Below are positions 21,001 to 36,000 of a stretch of 64,000 nt of DNA, in pieces. Origin of the DNA: an uncultured Methanosarcinales archaeon (GTDB lineage Archaea; Nanobdellota; Nanobdellia; Woesearchaeales; CAYMBN01); the NCBI GenBank assembly GCA_964388715.1, contig CAYMBN010000007.1:1-64000 (forward strand), read 5' to 3'. The position numbers are program-made. Every line of letters begins with the position of its first letter. Positions within the stretch are counted from its first letter, which is position 1.

Positions 21001-24000
21001 TTTATGGTGGAAGAGCTGGAGGACTTAATATTAATACCAATAATTATTTCACAAGCCAAGGTCAAATTATGAATTATCAAACAATCCAAGGTGATGTAAT
21101 GAGCTTTGTAAATGAGATGAATAATTATTACAAACAAAAAGGAATGGACACAATAGAAGTTGTAAACACACATGACACAACATTTGGTGTTGAAGCTGTT
21201 GAAGTTAGATTACAAAGTGGACAAAAAATGACAATTGCATCACAAGGAAGTGCTTATGATGCTGGAATAACAAACAATAGAATGTCAACTTCTAATATTG
21301 GTGTTGATATAAATGGTAATACAATAGCAATTGTTAATGTAAATAACAATGCTAATCTTAATGAAATCCTAACATCATTACAAAACAATCCTAATGTTGA
21401 TTCTTCAGCAATCAAAACACAGACAAACATTTTAGGAGGGATCACTGCAATTGAATTCCAAGATGGTGCTACAACCAAGGTAATTAAAACCGAAGTAGCT
21501 ACCCTAGACCATTACACTGATGCTGCTGGTAGTCAAGTTGAGATAAAACAAACAACAACATTAGAAGACGCTGTTCATGATGCTGTTGAGGAAATCATAA
21601 GTGACGAAGATATATCACAAGAACAAAGAAAAAGATATTGGGGAATATTAACAACTGATGCTGCTGAATTTGTAAATGTACCTGCATTCTTTAAACAATT
21701 CACTCCAGAACAAATCAAACAAGAGATAGCTGATGATATTCTAAGCACATTAAAACATGAACCTCCAACAGTCGCATTTGCCAAATTACAAGAATATGGT
21801 CTTATGGATGCGCAACTTAATGCTAAAACAACAAATCCAATTATACAAGATTATGTTAAAAAGGTTAAACCAACTGTCCAAACATTTGAGCAGAAAAGAA
21901 AAAATTTAATGGAAAAACTTAGAACACAAAGAACCAAACTTGAAAGTAGCATTGAACAAACCATTGACCAATTAAAAGAAAAATTAGCAACAACACAAGA
22001 TAATCATGAAAAAGGCATGCTACAATCAGCAATCAATGCATTACAAGCACAAGTGCATGGTCTTCAAGAGCTAAGTTTAGAAACACAAGTTGCAAATTTA
22101 CTAAGAAAAATGGCAACAACAAATGATGATGCTGAATTTAATGAACTTCAAGACTTATTACAAAAAAAACAAGGAATACTTGATCAAAAAAGAATTGACA
22201 AAATAAATAAATTAGCAGATGCATTAGTACAACAAAGTATAGCACTTGCACAACAACAAACACTTGAAAACATTGATAAACTTGCTGAAGATATGAGACA
22301 AACTGCAAGAGAAAAAGCAGAAGATTTAACAAAAGTTGAATCTGTAATAATACAAGCAAGATTAAATTTCTTATTAAGAGCAGGACGTTATTCTGACATA
22401 CAAAACATGGCTGAAGACGCCAAAATAACTCAAGAAGGAAAAGATTATCTTGAAAAAACAAACATACTAGATGCTTATGCAGCACTTGCAAATGTTCTTG
22501 AAGGAAATACAGACATCAAAACTCTTAATAACCTAATACAAACCTTACAAGCTCAAAGAGTAAAAGTTATAGACCAAGATTTCCTTGAATTTGGATATGA
22601 TTATGGTTATGACATAAACCAATTAATTGGAATGATAGAAACAGCAAAAACAAATATTAGAACTAAAAGAGGAGACATGGTTATACAAAACAAAATTGAC
22701 ACTATAAGAGATGCTGAAGGCACATTTAAATCAACAGATGATCTTGTAGCACTAGGTGTTGTAAATGAAATGATTAGAATAGGTTACAGTTATTCAGATA
22801 TAGCAGAAGTAATGAATAAACCACAATCACTAGCAGATTTATTTGATATTACTCCAGAACAAGCTCAAAAAATTGCTGATAATTATCTTAATATTATGGC
22901 AGAAATAGAATTTTCTAAAGTAAACCCAAAATTAACATCAGAAGATTTGTTTAAGAAATCAGATGCAAGATCACAATCAGCACAATGGCAATCAATAAAA
23001 CAAGCAACAGGAGTAGGAGAACCAGGTGTTGTTAATACCCAAACAAAAACACCTGCTCAAAACATTATTGATTTAATCAAAAGCCATGTTGACTTTGAAG
23101 GTTCTGATATTAATATAGAGGATTATATTAGTGAAGTTACCAAATTACTCACAGGTTCTGATGACTTTGAAGCATTATCACAAGAACAACAAGAACAAGT
23201 GTACAGGGAAATGAAAAATTTAATTGAACGTTATTCCCAAGTTGCTGTTCAAGGAAATAATCTAGAAGTTGACACAACACAACAAGGCAAGGAAGATGCT
23301 ATAACATCAAAAGTACCATTCAAGATATCATTTAGCCAATTTAACAGAGGCTTATTTGACAAAGGGTTATGGGGTTTTGTTGACCACCTTTGTAATGTAC
23401 AATTTGAAGTATTAGGATATATGGAGGCAAACTGTGCAGGATGAGACAAATAAGTAAAAAACTAATAGCTGTATTAATGATTTTATGTATTTTATCTCCT
23501 AGCATTCTTGCACAAAAAGTCAAATTAAAATGTGGAAACTCAGTGCCATTTATCAGACAAACAGTTGAAGAACAAGCACAAGAACAAGATATTATAGGAT
23601 TAGATAACCATCTTATGCAAGAAATTGCACATATGCTTGATAGTGGTGCAACTCGTGAAGAAGTCCTAGACACTTTAATAGACCTAGGAATCCAAAGTGA
23701 ACAAGCTCAAAATTTACTTGAAAATTTAAGAGGTATGCAACATCAAGTTGTTCAAGACAGTGCAAAAAAAATTGCAACAGAAAAAGGAACAAAAATAACA
23801 CAATCACAAATTGATGATGTATTTAACCTAGCTCAATATGATACAAACATTGCAGATCTATTAAGTTCTGATAACCCTAGTGTAGCTGAACATCTGGAAA
23901 AAATGGCAAGATTATCTTTAAAACCAGAATATGTTAAACAATATGCTGAAGAACAAGCAAAATGGCTTAAAGATTATAAAGAGAACGGTTATAGAGATTT

Positions 24001-33000: not shown

Positions 33001-36000
33001 AATAGTTGATGAAACTTTAAGAGGAAAAATCATATTAAATGGACATTTAATGCAGTTAAAAAATAAATTAGATATTTCGGGTAATAAATTTAATGAATTA
33101 TTAGAAACCATGTGGAATTATAATAATGATTATTCTAAAATTGATGATGAAATTAATAAAATTGGTTTAAATCAATATAAAAATCAGATTAAATTAGCCT
33201 TCCTTGAAGCATTAAAAGAGACTAGAATTTTAAATGATAATTTTAACTTTTATTTAAATAGAGAACATAATAAGTGGGTAAGGGAATTAATAAGGTCAAC
33301 AAAAACTAAATCAGGAACAAGTTATGCAACAGAATGGGCTGGTAAAAATCTCAATGAAAGAACTTTAATTATGATCAAAATAAAATTTGAAAATCAATTA
33401 AATGAAGAACAAGAAAGGAAACTACTGTTAGAAGGAACCCAAATCCACTTTAAAGATACATATAATATTGATTTAGAAGTTCCAATTGGTGAAGATAATA
33501 TTGAAATAGATGATCACGTTTTAAAACCTTTTACAAAAGATGAAATAAAAGAATTTTTATCTTCTGGATCACTGCAAGCCATAGATCAAAATTATTTATT
33601 TCCATTACAACAAGTATTAAAAGGAAATCAAAAAATTAAAAAAATTATTTTCCCAAAATATATTTTAAAACCAACTAATGTTGCAGGAATTCATAGTGAA
33701 AGTACTGCTACCATATACCTTAACGGTGAAGCAACAGCTAGTGATATTCTTAGTGTATTACTTCACGAAATAGGTCATGCTGTACTTGTAGAAGGAGATA
33801 ACATAATTAACATACACCAATTAACTAGATTCATAAAAGAGCAAGGTTATGATTCAATTATTCCAAACGAAGGGATTACAAGATACAACAAAGAAACAAT
33901 CCTCCTAAAATTAATGGACAAAATATATCAAAATAGAATAAATCAAATTGTAACAAGAGATCAAGATGGAAATATTGCTAATATTGACCATATAAAAGCA
34001 TTTAGTTTATTTCCAACAAGATATTCATACATTAATAAGGTAAGTGAAACAATACATGATAATCCTAAAGAATTTTTTGCTGAATACTATTACACTTATT
34101 TTTTAAATCAGAATATAGCAAAAGAAGAGTATCCAACAATGTATTCTCTTTTCAAGAATGTACTTAATTTAGAAGCAATTACTAATAAAAAAATAAATGA
34201 ACTAAAAGAACAAATACTAACAGAATACGCTAAAGAAGTTTTAAATGATGTTAAATTAAAGGCAGAACCACAACTTGTAGAATATGTTAAAAGAATAATT
34301 AATTACAAAGACTTACATGAGCATGTAACTAATATAAGAAGAATTGCAAGACCAATTATCCAAGAACTTAAAAAAGATCCAGACTTTGCTTCAATTGATG
34401 AAGTTGTCTTTGAACAAGCTGCTTTATTACATGACCTAGGAAAAGTCATTAATCCACACATTCAAAAAGTATTTGAAATCCCACAAAAACTTCCAGATGG
34501 ATTAAATGTTTATGTAAATACTGTTGAAGAAATTATTAAAGCAGTGTACCCAAATTCTGCTACTGAAATCTTAGAAGGATTAAAAAATTCAGTAAAATTA
34601 AAAGCATATGCTCAAGGTCTTGGAAAAGAACCACTCCAACTCACTGCAAGAGAAGTTTTTGAGTTTCATGCAAAAGAATCAGAAAGTGAACTAGAAAAAA
34701 TAGTTGATGATCAAAAAGTCGCAAAGATTGCAGGTGCACACCATAGATTCCATTATCAAGGAGGTTATCCTAAAAGTGCTGTTCAATCACCTGGAACACC
34801 AACAGATATGGTTCTAAGTGTAATTGACATTTACGAAGCACATAGAACAAGAAAAAGTGAGGGTAAACCAAATCCTACACATGAAACAGGAGTACAATTA
34901 CTAGAAAGTACATTAAGTGATTGGGAAATTAACACAGTAGAAAAAAAAGGAGCAGACCCAGAGCAAGTTAAAAAAGACAAACCAATCTATGCAAAAATAA
35001 TTAATGCTTTATCTAAAAATAAAGAACCAATAGATAAAATATTCGCAGAAACATAATTATTACATTCTAGGATCTAAAAAATGATCACTATGTGCATATT
35101 GAGAAAATTCTTTTGGTGATAAAAGATATAATGCATGTTCTGCAGCATGTTTAACCAAACTTGAAAATCTATTTTTAGTAGTAACTTCATGAATCTTTTT
35201 TCTAATTTCTTCACCTTCTAATTCTTCATATGCAGATGAAACTTCTTTATGAACTTGATCAGCTCTTTCAACTATACCTTTTAAAAAATCATATACTGTA
35301 TCAGAATGATATTGCAATTTTGCTAAAGATAATACTGCTATCATTGCTACTTCTTCAGCATTTCTATCACTTAAATCAACACTATTTACAGTACTAATTA
35401 AAGTAGGAACTATCTGTTCATCCAATGTTTTTATTCTCTGAACATCTGATTCATAAAGCTTTGAATCACTATAATTACTTAATGCTGAAACACAAGCTAA
35501 TTTTACCCAATTACTGTCTTCAGTATTTATAGAATCAATTAAAGCAGGAACTATTTGACCAGTAATCACACTAGAACTTTGACTTGTTGATTCATAAAGT
35601 GCTTGATTTCCATAATTACCAAGAGCCATTGCATAATTTCTACGATTACTATGGTTTGGATCATTCTTAAGTCCATCTAGTAAAGTATCTAAATTATCCA
35701 AAGAAACATTATTTTCAACCAAATTTTCACTAATATTATCCATAATTTTTCACCTTTGTTAAACTCTCAAAAAATATAACATTACTACCCATAAGAAGTA
35801 AATGACTATTTAAATCTTTCGGTTTTAAAGCTAATTTTGGCTAAAACACCCAAATTCAGGCATCTCAACCCTCACTAGTGTTACCACTAATAAGTCACTA
35901 AAAACAAAAGATTTATAAAGGAGAAGTGTTTTAATAACATAAAATGCCTAATACAACCAAAGAACAAGCAAAAAACCTTGAAAATGTAGTTGATCAAGGC

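Follow-up and report, generated by a model that had tools for sequence, protein, structure and literature searches.

Closest Described Systems

Polyvalent proteins join zincin, kinase, ADP-ribosyltransferase (ART), GGDEF and nucleotidyltransferase type enzymes in one polypeptide and are presumed to strike several targets upon delivery; in the available text, those above 1,000 aa are almost all bacterial (Iyer et al. 2017, PMC5512222). Neither "signal peptide" nor "lyase" occurs anywhere in the main text of that paper. In its available text, polymorphic toxins consist of an N-terminal trafficking region and a variable C-terminal enzyme. The giants of Omnitrophota, small episymbiotic or predatory cells, are multi-enzyme proteins with unique sequences, similar architectures, and HD, HEAT and TPR content (accessible parts of bioRxiv 10.1101/2023.11.21.568195 and bioRxiv 10.64898/2026.06.07.730766). 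Archaeovorins are at least 30,000 aa long and have many transmembrane helices and mainly sugar-acting enzymes (accessible part of bioRxiv 10.1101/2023.11.21.568195). In LanKC/LanL, a lyase of the OspF/SpvC type is N-terminal to a Ser/Thr kinase (available parts of PMC10604976 and PMC2843593); in ThurKC these residues are K65/H67/K94/K117/D152/R163 (PMC10604976). The nanohaloarchaeal SPEARE proteins are DPANN giants that carry a Sec signal and have been suggested as a means of delivering "yet unknown effectors" to hosts; in the available text they are membrane-anchored, with Ig/propeller domains and a VirB4-like ATPase but no other enzymes (PMC10266531). For Woesearchaeota, the evidence found for attack on bacteria is murein hydrolases and a TlyC-like gene (available parts of PMC9723730 and PMC12352652).

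The window, that is, the whole 64,000-nucleotide stretch analysed, comes from the genome of a tiny, host-dependent Woesearchaeon and encodes a giant protein of 3871 aa. The giant works like polyvalent proteins and archaeovorins, and is a member of neither of these nor of LanKC. As in polyvalent proteins, several unrelated enzymes are joined in one polypeptide. Unlike them, the giant lies at a chromosomal archaeal locus amid housekeeping genes (prefoldin, PRPP synthetase, ScpA and FeFe hydrogenase) and has a Sec signal peptide. No phage, prophage or conjugative/T4SS context was found at the locus, the cargo segments had no informative PHROG matches, and the hallmarks ArdC-N, LPDs and polyvalent MPTase had no Pfam match in the giant, whose cargo is very diverged.

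The genome-wide survey's note had described the giant as of Omnitrophota kind, with a 26% identical Omnitrophica homologue. That homologue was not recovered: residues 150-582 matched only their own protein among 4867 candidates of 2129-6775 aa. The giant does share the multi-enzyme build, the unique sequence within a similar architecture, and the type of domain content with the Omnitrophota giants, and a weak DEAD/ResIII match in a 5427-aa protein of the relative G091, which also has GT2, recalls their SecA-DEAD domain. In contrast to the archaeovorins as described in the accessible text, it is archaeal, about a tenth of their size or less, free of transmembrane helices, protein-modifying instead of sugar-acting, and divided into Cys-bounded genes. 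Glycosyltransferase, glycoside hydrolase, methylase, NUDIX, C39 and SecA-DEAD were all absent from the giant in Pfam.

The giant shares the lyase residues and the lyase-kinase order with LanKC/LanL. It differs in being exported, in lacking a cyclase or precursor, and in a 45-residue lyase insertion and a spacer of ~280 residues before the kinase. In use, its lyase is likely to be closer to the stand-alone effector lyases than to LanKC/LanL. An N-terminal secretion signal is shared with polymorphic toxins, whose layout fits the relatives G380 and G031; unlike those toxins, the giant belongs to a set in which numerous enzymes are spread over the length of the chain and over tandem genes. Compared with SPEARE, the Woesearchaeota giants are the enzyme cargo itself. 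No published description of such proteins was found in the article main texts searched, which took in few subscription papers and not Makarova et al. 2019 (archaeal polymorphic toxins).

Organization of the Locus

The locus contains the following genes:

3..11944, + strand: upstream surface-protein genes (MopE-repeat, 1638+ aa; Ig, 1327 aa; TSP3-type, 488 aa; 515 aa)
11941..16809, + strand: 1622-aa Cys-rich secreted protein with F5/8 type C lectin domain; 4-nt overlap with the carrier gene
16806..23444, + strand: exported putative carrier, 2212 aa, ending with Cys2196 and Cys2210
23441..35056, + strand: exported multi-enzyme cargo protein, 3871 aa (real ORF, full-length cluster members, sequon count)
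35060..35743, - strand: HEAT-repeat gene, 227 aa, convergent with the giant, whose stop is 3 nt away

The ATG of the giant overlaps the stop of the carrier ORF. The giant had been reported to end a run of giant proteins. It is the last of seven same-strand ORFs counted from the contig start, but two of these encode only 488 and 515 aa. The surface-protein genes share its strand, and any functional link is a candidate one. The 1622-aa protein is a candidate adhesin.

The giant had also been called a singleton. This holds for the sequence, for which no close homologue was found, but not for the architecture, which recurs in the Woesearchaeales genomes G091, G205, G241 and G388 and, in a short form, in G380 and G031. 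These secreted giants carry shuffled kinase, HD, GGDEF, ART-like, phosphatase and lyase cargo, and their homologous N-terminal regions bear shuffled unrelated enzymes.

Domain Composition of the Giant Protein

The following features were assigned along the giant (+ strand):

23441..23512: Sec-type signal peptide (residues 1-24) with lone Cys31 after it; cleavage site placed by eye
24053..25045: putative endonuclease-IV / AP_endonuc_2-type TIM barrel, residues ~205-535
25463..25765: possible ART-fold module 1, recognised only by eye
26558..27160: phospho-Ser/Thr lyase of OspF/SpvC/LanKC type (K1067, H1069, K1096, K1149, Y1154, D1188, R1198)
27299..27670: tandem pair of unnamed ~60-aa beta-rich modules
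27998..28720: Ser/Thr protein kinase (K1559, E1582, D1667-x-K-x-x-N1672, D1688; DLT replaces DFG)
29240..29263: Cys pair 1934/1941, module boundary
29423..29935: ART-like module 2, canonical catalytic residues missing
30509..30715: degenerate partial copy of the C-terminal HD domain, HD dyad absent
31292..31306: Cys pair 2618/2622, module boundary
31628..32020: possible ART-fold module 3, recognised only by eye
33458..34180: putative zincin metallopeptidase (HEIGH 3442-3446, distal Y3528, EFFAE 3544)
34238..35053: HD-GYP-like phosphohydrolase, hypervariable tip (H3628, H3664/D3665, H3743, H3767/H3768, GYP, D3796)

The Pfam segment values given earlier for RamC_N, Pkinase, HD and zincin were reproduced, and the predicted lyase, kinase and HD domains were confirmed with their catalytic residues. 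The lyase match proved stronger than first thought. RamC_N scored 27.4 bits on the segment (E 2.7e-6, cut-off 27) and only E 0.0025 on the whole protein, while a profile of the lyase and five Woesearchaeales homologues matched LanKC lyase structures at E 1e-8. ESM Atlas groups the lyase with RamC_N/VRP3 clusters (0.90, 210/256 features), with a recognition score under the strong mark. The catalytic K, H, K, K, D and R of the LanKC/LanL type are all present; residue roles follow the available text on ThurKC (PMC10604976) and SpvC (PMC2843593), with D1188 and R1198 assigned by motif spacing. The predicted lyase structure has a pLDDT of 43.9, and fold tests supported none of the domains. The kinase, C-terminal to the lyase, matched Pkinase at E 6.4e-18 on its segment.

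The E. coli Nfo trimetal ligand set is, in order, H-H-E-D-H-H-D-H-E. The TIM barrel has H289, H317, E363, D409, H412, H442, D461/H463 and E525. This ordered motif, a pattern drawn after the sequence was seen, occurs in 3/4050 ORFs of the genome (the giant and two PF01261 members, used as positives) and in 0/20000 shuffles; a third PF01261 member, on contig C17, fails it. The segment had no Pfam, PDB or local-HMM match, and a 3-sequence HMM test was negative. The TIM barrel claimed earlier is retained, but its full ligand set supports an endonuclease-IV-type assignment rather than the epimerase type, which has a smaller set. The zincin call, like that of the TIM barrel, is based on motifs: its matches to Peptidase_M78 (E 8.8e-4), DUF6782, SprT, DUF4344 and ATLF are all under cut-off, and zincin families gave E 0.007-0.26 on the Pfam segment scan.

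HD-GYP phosphodiesterases have an HD dyad, an HH...GYP motif and six metal ligands. The C-terminal domain has the ligands and GYP, but its motif reads HHRFHYQGGYP; HD matched the segment at E 7.1e-8 and HD_5 at E 1.3e-4, below the HD_5 cut-off. The degenerate copy scored 72 against it (shuffled 37.1 +/- 5.7, 0/200 shuffles). The two beta-rich modules scored 52 against each other (24.2 +/- 4.4, 0/300).

The ART-like stretches are weak predictions. Canonical ART motifs are R-S-E and H-Y-E. Module 2, which may be inactive, has indirect support: it scored 54 against the G091 ART (32.4 +/- 5.6, 0/300 shuffles), which itself matches phage Alt, and Atlas gave weak leads at 0.89 to Arr and to PARP (16% of the members in that cluster), but profile and fold tests were negative and the ART-like model had a pLDDT of 34. 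Shuffle and profile tests gave no support to modules 1 and 3.

Predicted Export and Absence of Sequons

In a Kyte-Doolittle scan the N-terminal signal-like segment is the sole hydrophobic stretch of the giant, and no transmembrane helix was detected besides it. N-x-S/T sequons number 0 in the giant (19.0 expected) and 0 in the carrier (17.5 expected). Eight giants from five genomes, chosen by kinase/lyase matches or adjacency before sequons were counted, have 0 against 145.8 expected, yet retain 140 reversed motifs and 13 N-P-S/T. In contrast, proteins of the genome without signal peptide or membrane helix have 496 against 517 expected, and 14 signal-less kinases from relatives 41 against 47.6. 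The 1622-aa protein shows no depletion (12 vs 12.2). Together with the undepleted cytoplasmic controls, the sequon signature suggests that export is genuine and that glycans are selected against. The genome encodes AglB/STT3, and complete sequon avoidance in such a genome independently supports predicted export. The earlier description of a secreted, effector-like multi-enzyme protein is supported. Sequon loss is not specific to effectors: 14/94 signal-bearing proteins of the genome of at least 400 aa have none, the other 12 of which expect only 1-10. The signature, the carrier gene, the cysteine punctuation and the degenerate HD copy were absent from the genome-wide survey's note.

Putative Carrier and Cysteines

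The Gly-rich amphipathic core of the putative carrier (20496-21305), in which no helix reaches transmembrane hydrophobicity, resembles the N-terminal half of a carrier-kinase fusion in the unpublished genome G205 (92 vs 54.7 +/- 9.0, 0/100 shuffles; pairwise BLAST 3e-4). This suggests a weak homology, seen in that one genome; none was seen to G091, G388, G380 or G031.

Cysteines stand on both sides of 3/3 tandem gene junctions, in windows chosen post hoc, in proteins with 3-5 mature Cys each. None of the four first-in-train proteins has Cys within its first 10 mature residues. Single cysteines facing each other across all three junctions suggest a disulfide-linked train of carrier plus cargo. 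Cys occurs among the last five residues of 16/106 signal-bearing proteins, mostly Cys-rich ones, and one G388 protein with a terminal Cys lacks a following cargo gene. At the loci of four relatives, a pilin-like gene lies ahead of the giant; here no such gene adjoins the giant, and three homologues on other contigs precede other surface proteins. This gene, the Cys at tandem junctions and the sequon absence in eight giants are new observations.

Proposed Function and Alternatives

The giant is probably a host-directed multi-enzyme effector, the cargo of an exported train that acts on an attached cell, probably a bacterium. In favour of the effector reading, cargo dependent on ATP, phosphoproteins or cyclic nucleotides follows a signal peptide in a chain free of transmembrane helices. 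The sequon and cysteine patterns, the shuffled enzymes of relatives, the G091 genes that match its ART and kinase cargo, and population variation limited to the last domain also speak for it. Bacteria are indicated as the target by cargo of bacterial type in relatives (GGDEF, DUF294/GlnD, SpoIIE) and by the genome's own SLT plus M23 protein. On the other side stand the sequon loss in other secreted proteins, terminal Cys in proteins outside such trains, the weak carrier homology, the lack of carrier helices of transmembrane hydrophobicity, the pilin-like gene that does not adjoin the giant here, and the failed tests of ART modules 1 and 3.

Co-translation of carrier and cargo and Sec export of each are well supported as a putative first step. 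Both would be kept free of N-glycans, a function suggested by the sequon pattern. Outside the cell, a C-terminal Cys of the carrier may bond the lone post-signal Cys of the cargo, giving one covalent chain, in which internal Cys pairs may be fused junctions or release points. The carrier core may engage the target membrane, the unglycosylated chain would be threaded in, and modules might be freed by reduction inside. From their catalytic residues, the kinase and lyase would phosphorylate target proteins and then irreversibly eliminate phospho-Ser/Thr, the HD-GYP-like domain would destroy a cyclic-nucleotide signal, the TIM barrel would cut a nucleic-acid or nucleotide phosphodiester, and the zincin would clip target proteins. 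Combined, they would disarm signalling and defence of the target. More tentatively, Woesearchaeota may possess an effector-delivery system of their own, in which a pilin-like protein and a Sec-exported carrier head a disulfide-linked train of separately exported cargo proteins, kept N-glycan-free to allow threading into the bacterial host cytoplasm, where kinases, phospho-Thr lyases, ART and cyclic-nucleotide enzymes rewire signalling and defence.

It is unlikely that the protein is a polymorphic-toxin-like weapon, released to compete with neighbours (other DPANN or bacteria) and not a means of host management. G380 and G031 are built in the classic manner, with signal peptide, amphipathic helices and a single C-terminal lyase, and ADP-ribosylglycohydrolase and metallophosphoesterase genes between the G091 giants, matching their ART and kinase cargo, are candidate erasers. 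Variation is also located at the C-terminal tip: the 23 substitution sites listed for 19.7 kb all lie within 34642-35084, 10/18 affected codons are non-synonymous, and the tract runs into the 3' end of the HEAT-repeat gene. In the giant it is confined to two alleles of the same HD domain, and no domain swap was seen at the tip. In polymorphic toxin loci, the toxin gene is followed at once by a co-oriented immunity gene. The giant is followed by the convergent HEAT-repeat gene instead, with no co-directional immunity gene or orphan cassette, and its many regulatory-type enzymes (kinase, HD-GYP-like, GGDEF, SpoIIE) suit manipulation over killing.

A surface-held or released scavenging or decoy complex, acting in the contact zone on material from lysed cells (DNA, nucleotides, proteins) with no entry, is quite improbable. 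The evidence favours export but not entry, domains of nuclease, peptidase and phosphohydrolase type could work outside, and further secreted proteins lack sequons. However, kinase, phospho-Thr lyase, GGDEF and ART cargo would bring no nutritional gain extracellularly, and the large surface proteins of this genome mostly have neutral or high sequon counts (up to 10 per 100 aa).

A membrane-tethered hub for signalling or abortive defence, facing the cell's own cytoplasm with the N-terminal helix as uncleaved anchor, would provide the cytoplasmic substrates that all cargo requires and would fit the three lysines after the hydrophobic segment. It is very improbable, given the near-neutral sequon counts of cytoplasmic proteins against none in the giants, and the typical signal peptides of relatives.

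The giant is hardly a lanthipeptide-type enzyme whose lyase and kinase dehydrate a peptide. The lyase precedes the kinase as in LanKC/LanL, and each half weakly matches their NCBIfam models, but no segment matches a LanC-like cyclase (best in the genome E 0.087, under cut-off), no convincing Ser/Thr/Cys-rich, ATG-started small ORF lies at 35057-39400, the upstream genes are large and overlapping, and relatives have lyase and kinase apart or in reversed order. A lanthipeptide synthetase is largely excluded by the missing cyclase and precursor gene.

An assembly chimera or mis-binned bacterial contig, which the bacterial type of the domains, the lack of a close homologue and the lack of any single public contig across the whole locus could suggest, is extremely improbable in view of one uninterrupted 11.6-kb reading frame, three full-length members of its cluster (ENA, JGI/IMG, NCBI; possibly one sample), a public contig over 22143-29296 with zero differences (possibly the source sample), genome-like GC, an archaeal prefoldin gene on the contig and the same architecture elsewhere in the order.

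Implications

Phosphothreonine lyase, known from lanthipeptide synthesis and effectors of pathogenic bacteria, is now predicted in a secreted archaeal protein. The ways in which DPANN archaea affect their hosts are an open question, and the locus supplies concrete candidate effectors with intact active sites, whose domains can be assayed singly. The lack of sequons combined with terminal cysteines is a simple, strongly non-random signature for a lineage-wide screen. If the proposed delivery system is real, it would give a sequence-only rule for archaeal effectors, from which the domain of the host could be inferred; the bacterial-type cargo would mean that at least some hosts are bacteria.

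Locus and Genomic Context

The giant protein is encoded by the last ORF of a run of seven on the same strand.

23441–35056, forward strand: ORF of the giant protein, 3871 aa

The last four ORFs (515, 1622, 2212, and 3871 aa) are joined by 4-nt overlaps, which suggests that they are translationally coupled. The 2212-aa exported protein encoded directly upstream of the giant is called the carrier, and the giant its cargo. The genome is 1.30 Mb in size and 95.75% complete, and the best matches of its EF-2 are mostly labelled Woesearchaeota or Nanoarchaeota (64–76% identity). The genomes sampled for comparison all belong to other families. 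Other genes in the window are as follows.

39321–42514, forward strand: SMC/Rad50-like ATPase (816 aa), overlapping an R2K-clade ATP-grasp gene (248 aa)
48359–49027, forward strand: gene with a double Fis-type HTH
50414–55993, forward strand: secreted protein, 1859 aa, 8% Cys, no Pfam match, one N-x-S/T sequon vs. 7.8 expected
57432–60566, reverse strand: trimeric FeFe hydrogenase genes, adjoining NifU, cysteine desulfurase, and CutA1

DNA of the locus is present in marine metagenomes of two studies, which may be one campaign; no RNA dataset with the locus was among the matches listed. Three full-length cluster members of the giant come from three sources, and a single public contig runs across the carrier-cargo junction with no differences; members and contig alike may stem from the source sample. 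That the giant is an artefact is the least credible reading of all.

With 19.7 kb compared across four runs from a single study, every one of the 23 substitution sites listed falls within 34642–35084, where the HD domain and the convergent HEAT gene both end. The residue is altered in 10 of the 18 affected codons, none of them for a metal ligand, and the protein-cluster members carry the same allele. This tract looks like a recombined tip. Because contigs drop rare variants, the invariance outside it is a contig-level observation and no proof. Short partial matches gave rise to joints and to two 1-base insertions near 28756; neither kind was counted as a variant.

Domains of the Giant Protein

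Repeated segment scans reproduced the scores that the genome-wide survey's note had reported for the giant. Its homology of residues 150–582 to a giant Omnitrophica protein was not recovered: no such homologue was found among proteins of 2129–6775 aa, and repeated searches with these residues found no homologue.

At the level of sequence, the assignment of a phospho-Ser/Thr lyase is firm. A profile of the giant's lyase and five Woesearchaeales homologues matched LanKC lyase structures at E 1e-8. K65, H67, K94, and K117 of ThurKC (PMC10604976) align with K1067, H1069, K1096, and K1149 of the giant, and D152 and R163 correspond to D1188 and R1198 by motif spacing. The AlphaFold model of the lyase is unusable (pLDDT 43.9), and Foldseek and VIA found only generic alpha/beta matches with it.

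The catalytic K, E, D, N, and D are present in the kinase. The HD domain retains its ligands and GYP, with a deviating HD-GYP motif, and residues 2357–2425 are a degenerate partial copy of it. The zincin has HEIGH and a distal EFFAE, and all its family matches are sub-threshold.

The TIM barrel has no profile match. An ordered ligand pattern, drawn up after inspection of the giant's sequence and based on the Nfo ligand set, occurs in three of 4050 ORFs of the genome (two PF01261 members and the giant) and in none of 20000 shuffles. A 697-aa AP_endonuc_2-type TIM barrel with a ~300-aa insertion is encoded elsewhere in the genome (C2:146505–148598); by eye, its motifs are like those of the giant's TIM barrel.

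Three stretches resemble ADP-ribosyltransferases (ART) by eye. Only the second, residues 1995–2165, is supported; it is without the canonical catalytic residues, and its AlphaFold model is unusable (pLDDT 34.0). The first and third failed both shuffle and profile tests. No phage match was found by tblastn with the three stretches.

Related Proteins in Other Genomes

No homologue of the whole giant was found among 2121 scored candidates. Across the homologue searches, matches in G014 and G244 were judged to be chance. The lyase as a query found no homologue by sequence search, and HMMER with lyase and kinase was swamped by generic kinases. RamC_N matches were observed in six of 401 genomes of the order, and that in G236 was dropped as Pfam gave no confirmation. 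This search overlooked the lyase of the present genome itself, and the count is thus a lower bound, at least five of 400 relatives. A six-sequence lyase profile found no additional genome. Two other Woesearchaeales, G088 (L101:9865–10608) and G054 (L102:5146–6024), have phospho-Ser/Thr lyases that stand alone and lack a signal peptide.

The kinase query matched 61 of 381 genomes, and among the places listed four matches lie in frames >2,000 aa: the giant, G091, G205, and G241. Many Woesearchaeales have large (700–1100 aa) signal-less Ser/Thr kinases (14 relatives, L227–L240).

Table. Architectures in relatives
G091 gene 1: 5427 aa; signal peptide, TPR, weak DEAD-like match, R-S-E ART, nucleotidyltransferase-like tail
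G091 gene 2: 2982 aa; three kinases, GT2, HD, HExxH motif, GGDEF, DUF294/GlnD
G091 gene 3: 2660+ aa; HEAT repeats
G241 giant: 2740+ aa, 5'-truncated; HD, kinase, SpoIIE
G388 giant: 3026 aa; three repeated kinase-like and two ART-like modules (by eye), C-terminal lyase
G380 and G031 proteins: short forms; single C-terminal lyase each

The three G091 genes form a train, with ADP-ribosylglycohydrolase and metallophosphoesterase genes between them on the opposite strand. The R-S-E ART matches phage Alt (83 vs. 30.0, 0/300 shuffles). G388 is labelled Diapherotrites at NCBI, and the genome set places it in the same order as the present genome. Its ART alignment found nothing real across 351 genomes.

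The N-terminal regions of G091 and G388 are each related to that of G205 (103 vs. 44.5 and 74 vs. 38.0, 0/100 shuffles each); their direct comparison is not significant. The middle region of G205 matches the carrier (92 vs. 54.7, 0/100 shuffles). G205 is unpublished, and it underlies this carrier-core homology, the N-terminal link, one of the eight sequon counts below, and one of the four pilin-like loci. Carrier-core patterns had no matches in genome or metagenome contigs, and carrier profiles recovered only the input sequences from the genome and the relatives' loci compared.

Directly upstream of the giant in G091, G205, G380, and G388 lies a homologous gene (mutual E ≤4.6e-15) whose product starts with KKGQ or KRGQ, resembling a class III signal peptide. 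This pilin-like gene has no Pfam match, and none adjoins the giant in the window. Elsewhere in the genome, at C20:1–4319, a KKGQ-type gene is followed by that of a Cys-free, sequon-free secreted protein running off the contig end. This might be a second carrier locus; of six shuffle tests, the one against G388 was positive.

Absence of Sequons and Predicted Export

Across the 26,291 residues of eight giants from five genomes there is no N-x-S/T sequon, whereas local shuffles predict 145.8 (128.5 if G205 is left out). The 3871-aa giant alone has none against 19.0 expected, and the minimum of 200 shuffles is 10. No depletion is seen for the control motifs, and there are 13 instances of N-P-S/T, which does not undergo glycosylation. 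Among cytoplasmic-type proteins of the genome, 496 sequons were counted and 517 expected; the corresponding figures for signal-less kinases in relatives are 41 and 47.6, with three of 17 rows excluded (two giant fragments and one 5'-truncated surface protein). Each of the short forms, in G380 and in G031, has two sequons, which are N-terminal in every case. STT3/AglB is encoded in the genome (E 5e-47).

Such counterselection would be pointless unless the oligosaccharyltransferase, on the outward side of the membrane, came into contact with the chain, and the absence thus supports export of these proteins. The same contact argues against a cytoplasm-facing anchor, and makes a cytoplasm-facing hub improbable. 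The absence of sequons is no proof that the proteins enter another cell, as 12 other signal-bearing proteins of the genome are also sequon-free, at lower expectation. Another secreted, sequon-free protein (C8:1–3275; 1084+ aa) has repeats and a TPR-like stretch, and is cut off by the contig end.

Cysteines at Protein Junctions

Cys content of the giants is low (0.03–0.5%). In all three tandem junctions observed (two in G091, one here), Cys is present in the last five residues of the upstream protein and in the first ten mature residues of the downstream one. The joint chance is ~4e-13 at the proteins' own Cys densities, with windows set post hoc and two of three junctions from one genome. None of the four first-in-train proteins has such an N-terminal Cys, and the giant, last in its operon, has no C-terminal Cys. 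Internal Cys pairs lie between modules in the giant (1934/1941 and 2618/2622) and G241, as well as at the carrier-cargo boundary of G388; some pairs of G091 and G388, by contrast, lie within domains. Terminal Cys is common among Cys-rich secreted proteins of the genome (16 of 106). The simplest reading of these sequences would be a disulfide-linked train of proteins.

Possible Function

It is fairly likely that these exported, unglycosylated, cytoplasm-acting enzymes act in the cytoplasm of another cell. The GGDEF, GlnD-type, and SpoIIE cargo in relatives suggests a bacterial target, as does a candidate peptidoglycan-attacking enzyme of the genome.

C9:24736–29814: membrane-anchored protein, 1691 aa, SLT lytic transglycosylase (E 1e-4) and M23 peptidase (E 5e-17)

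It is sequon-poor (2 vs. 9.4) and in line with the murein hydrolases reported in Woesearchaeota (PMC9723730).

A competition toxin is an unlikely alternative, and the giant misses defining features of polymorphic toxins. An extracellular scavenger or decoy, for which the exported enzymes would act outside cells, is somewhat less likely still. A lanthipeptide synthetase is very improbable: the lyase matches LanKC structures, yet the giant misses defining LanKC features.

The giant would work like polyvalent proteins, yet misses defining features of that group; it would also work like a small archaeovorin, yet misses defining features of archaeovorins. A literature search of partial coverage found no account of such proteins. 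We class the giant among multi-enzyme conflict effectors, and tentatively suggest that it might mark an undescribed archaeal delivery system.
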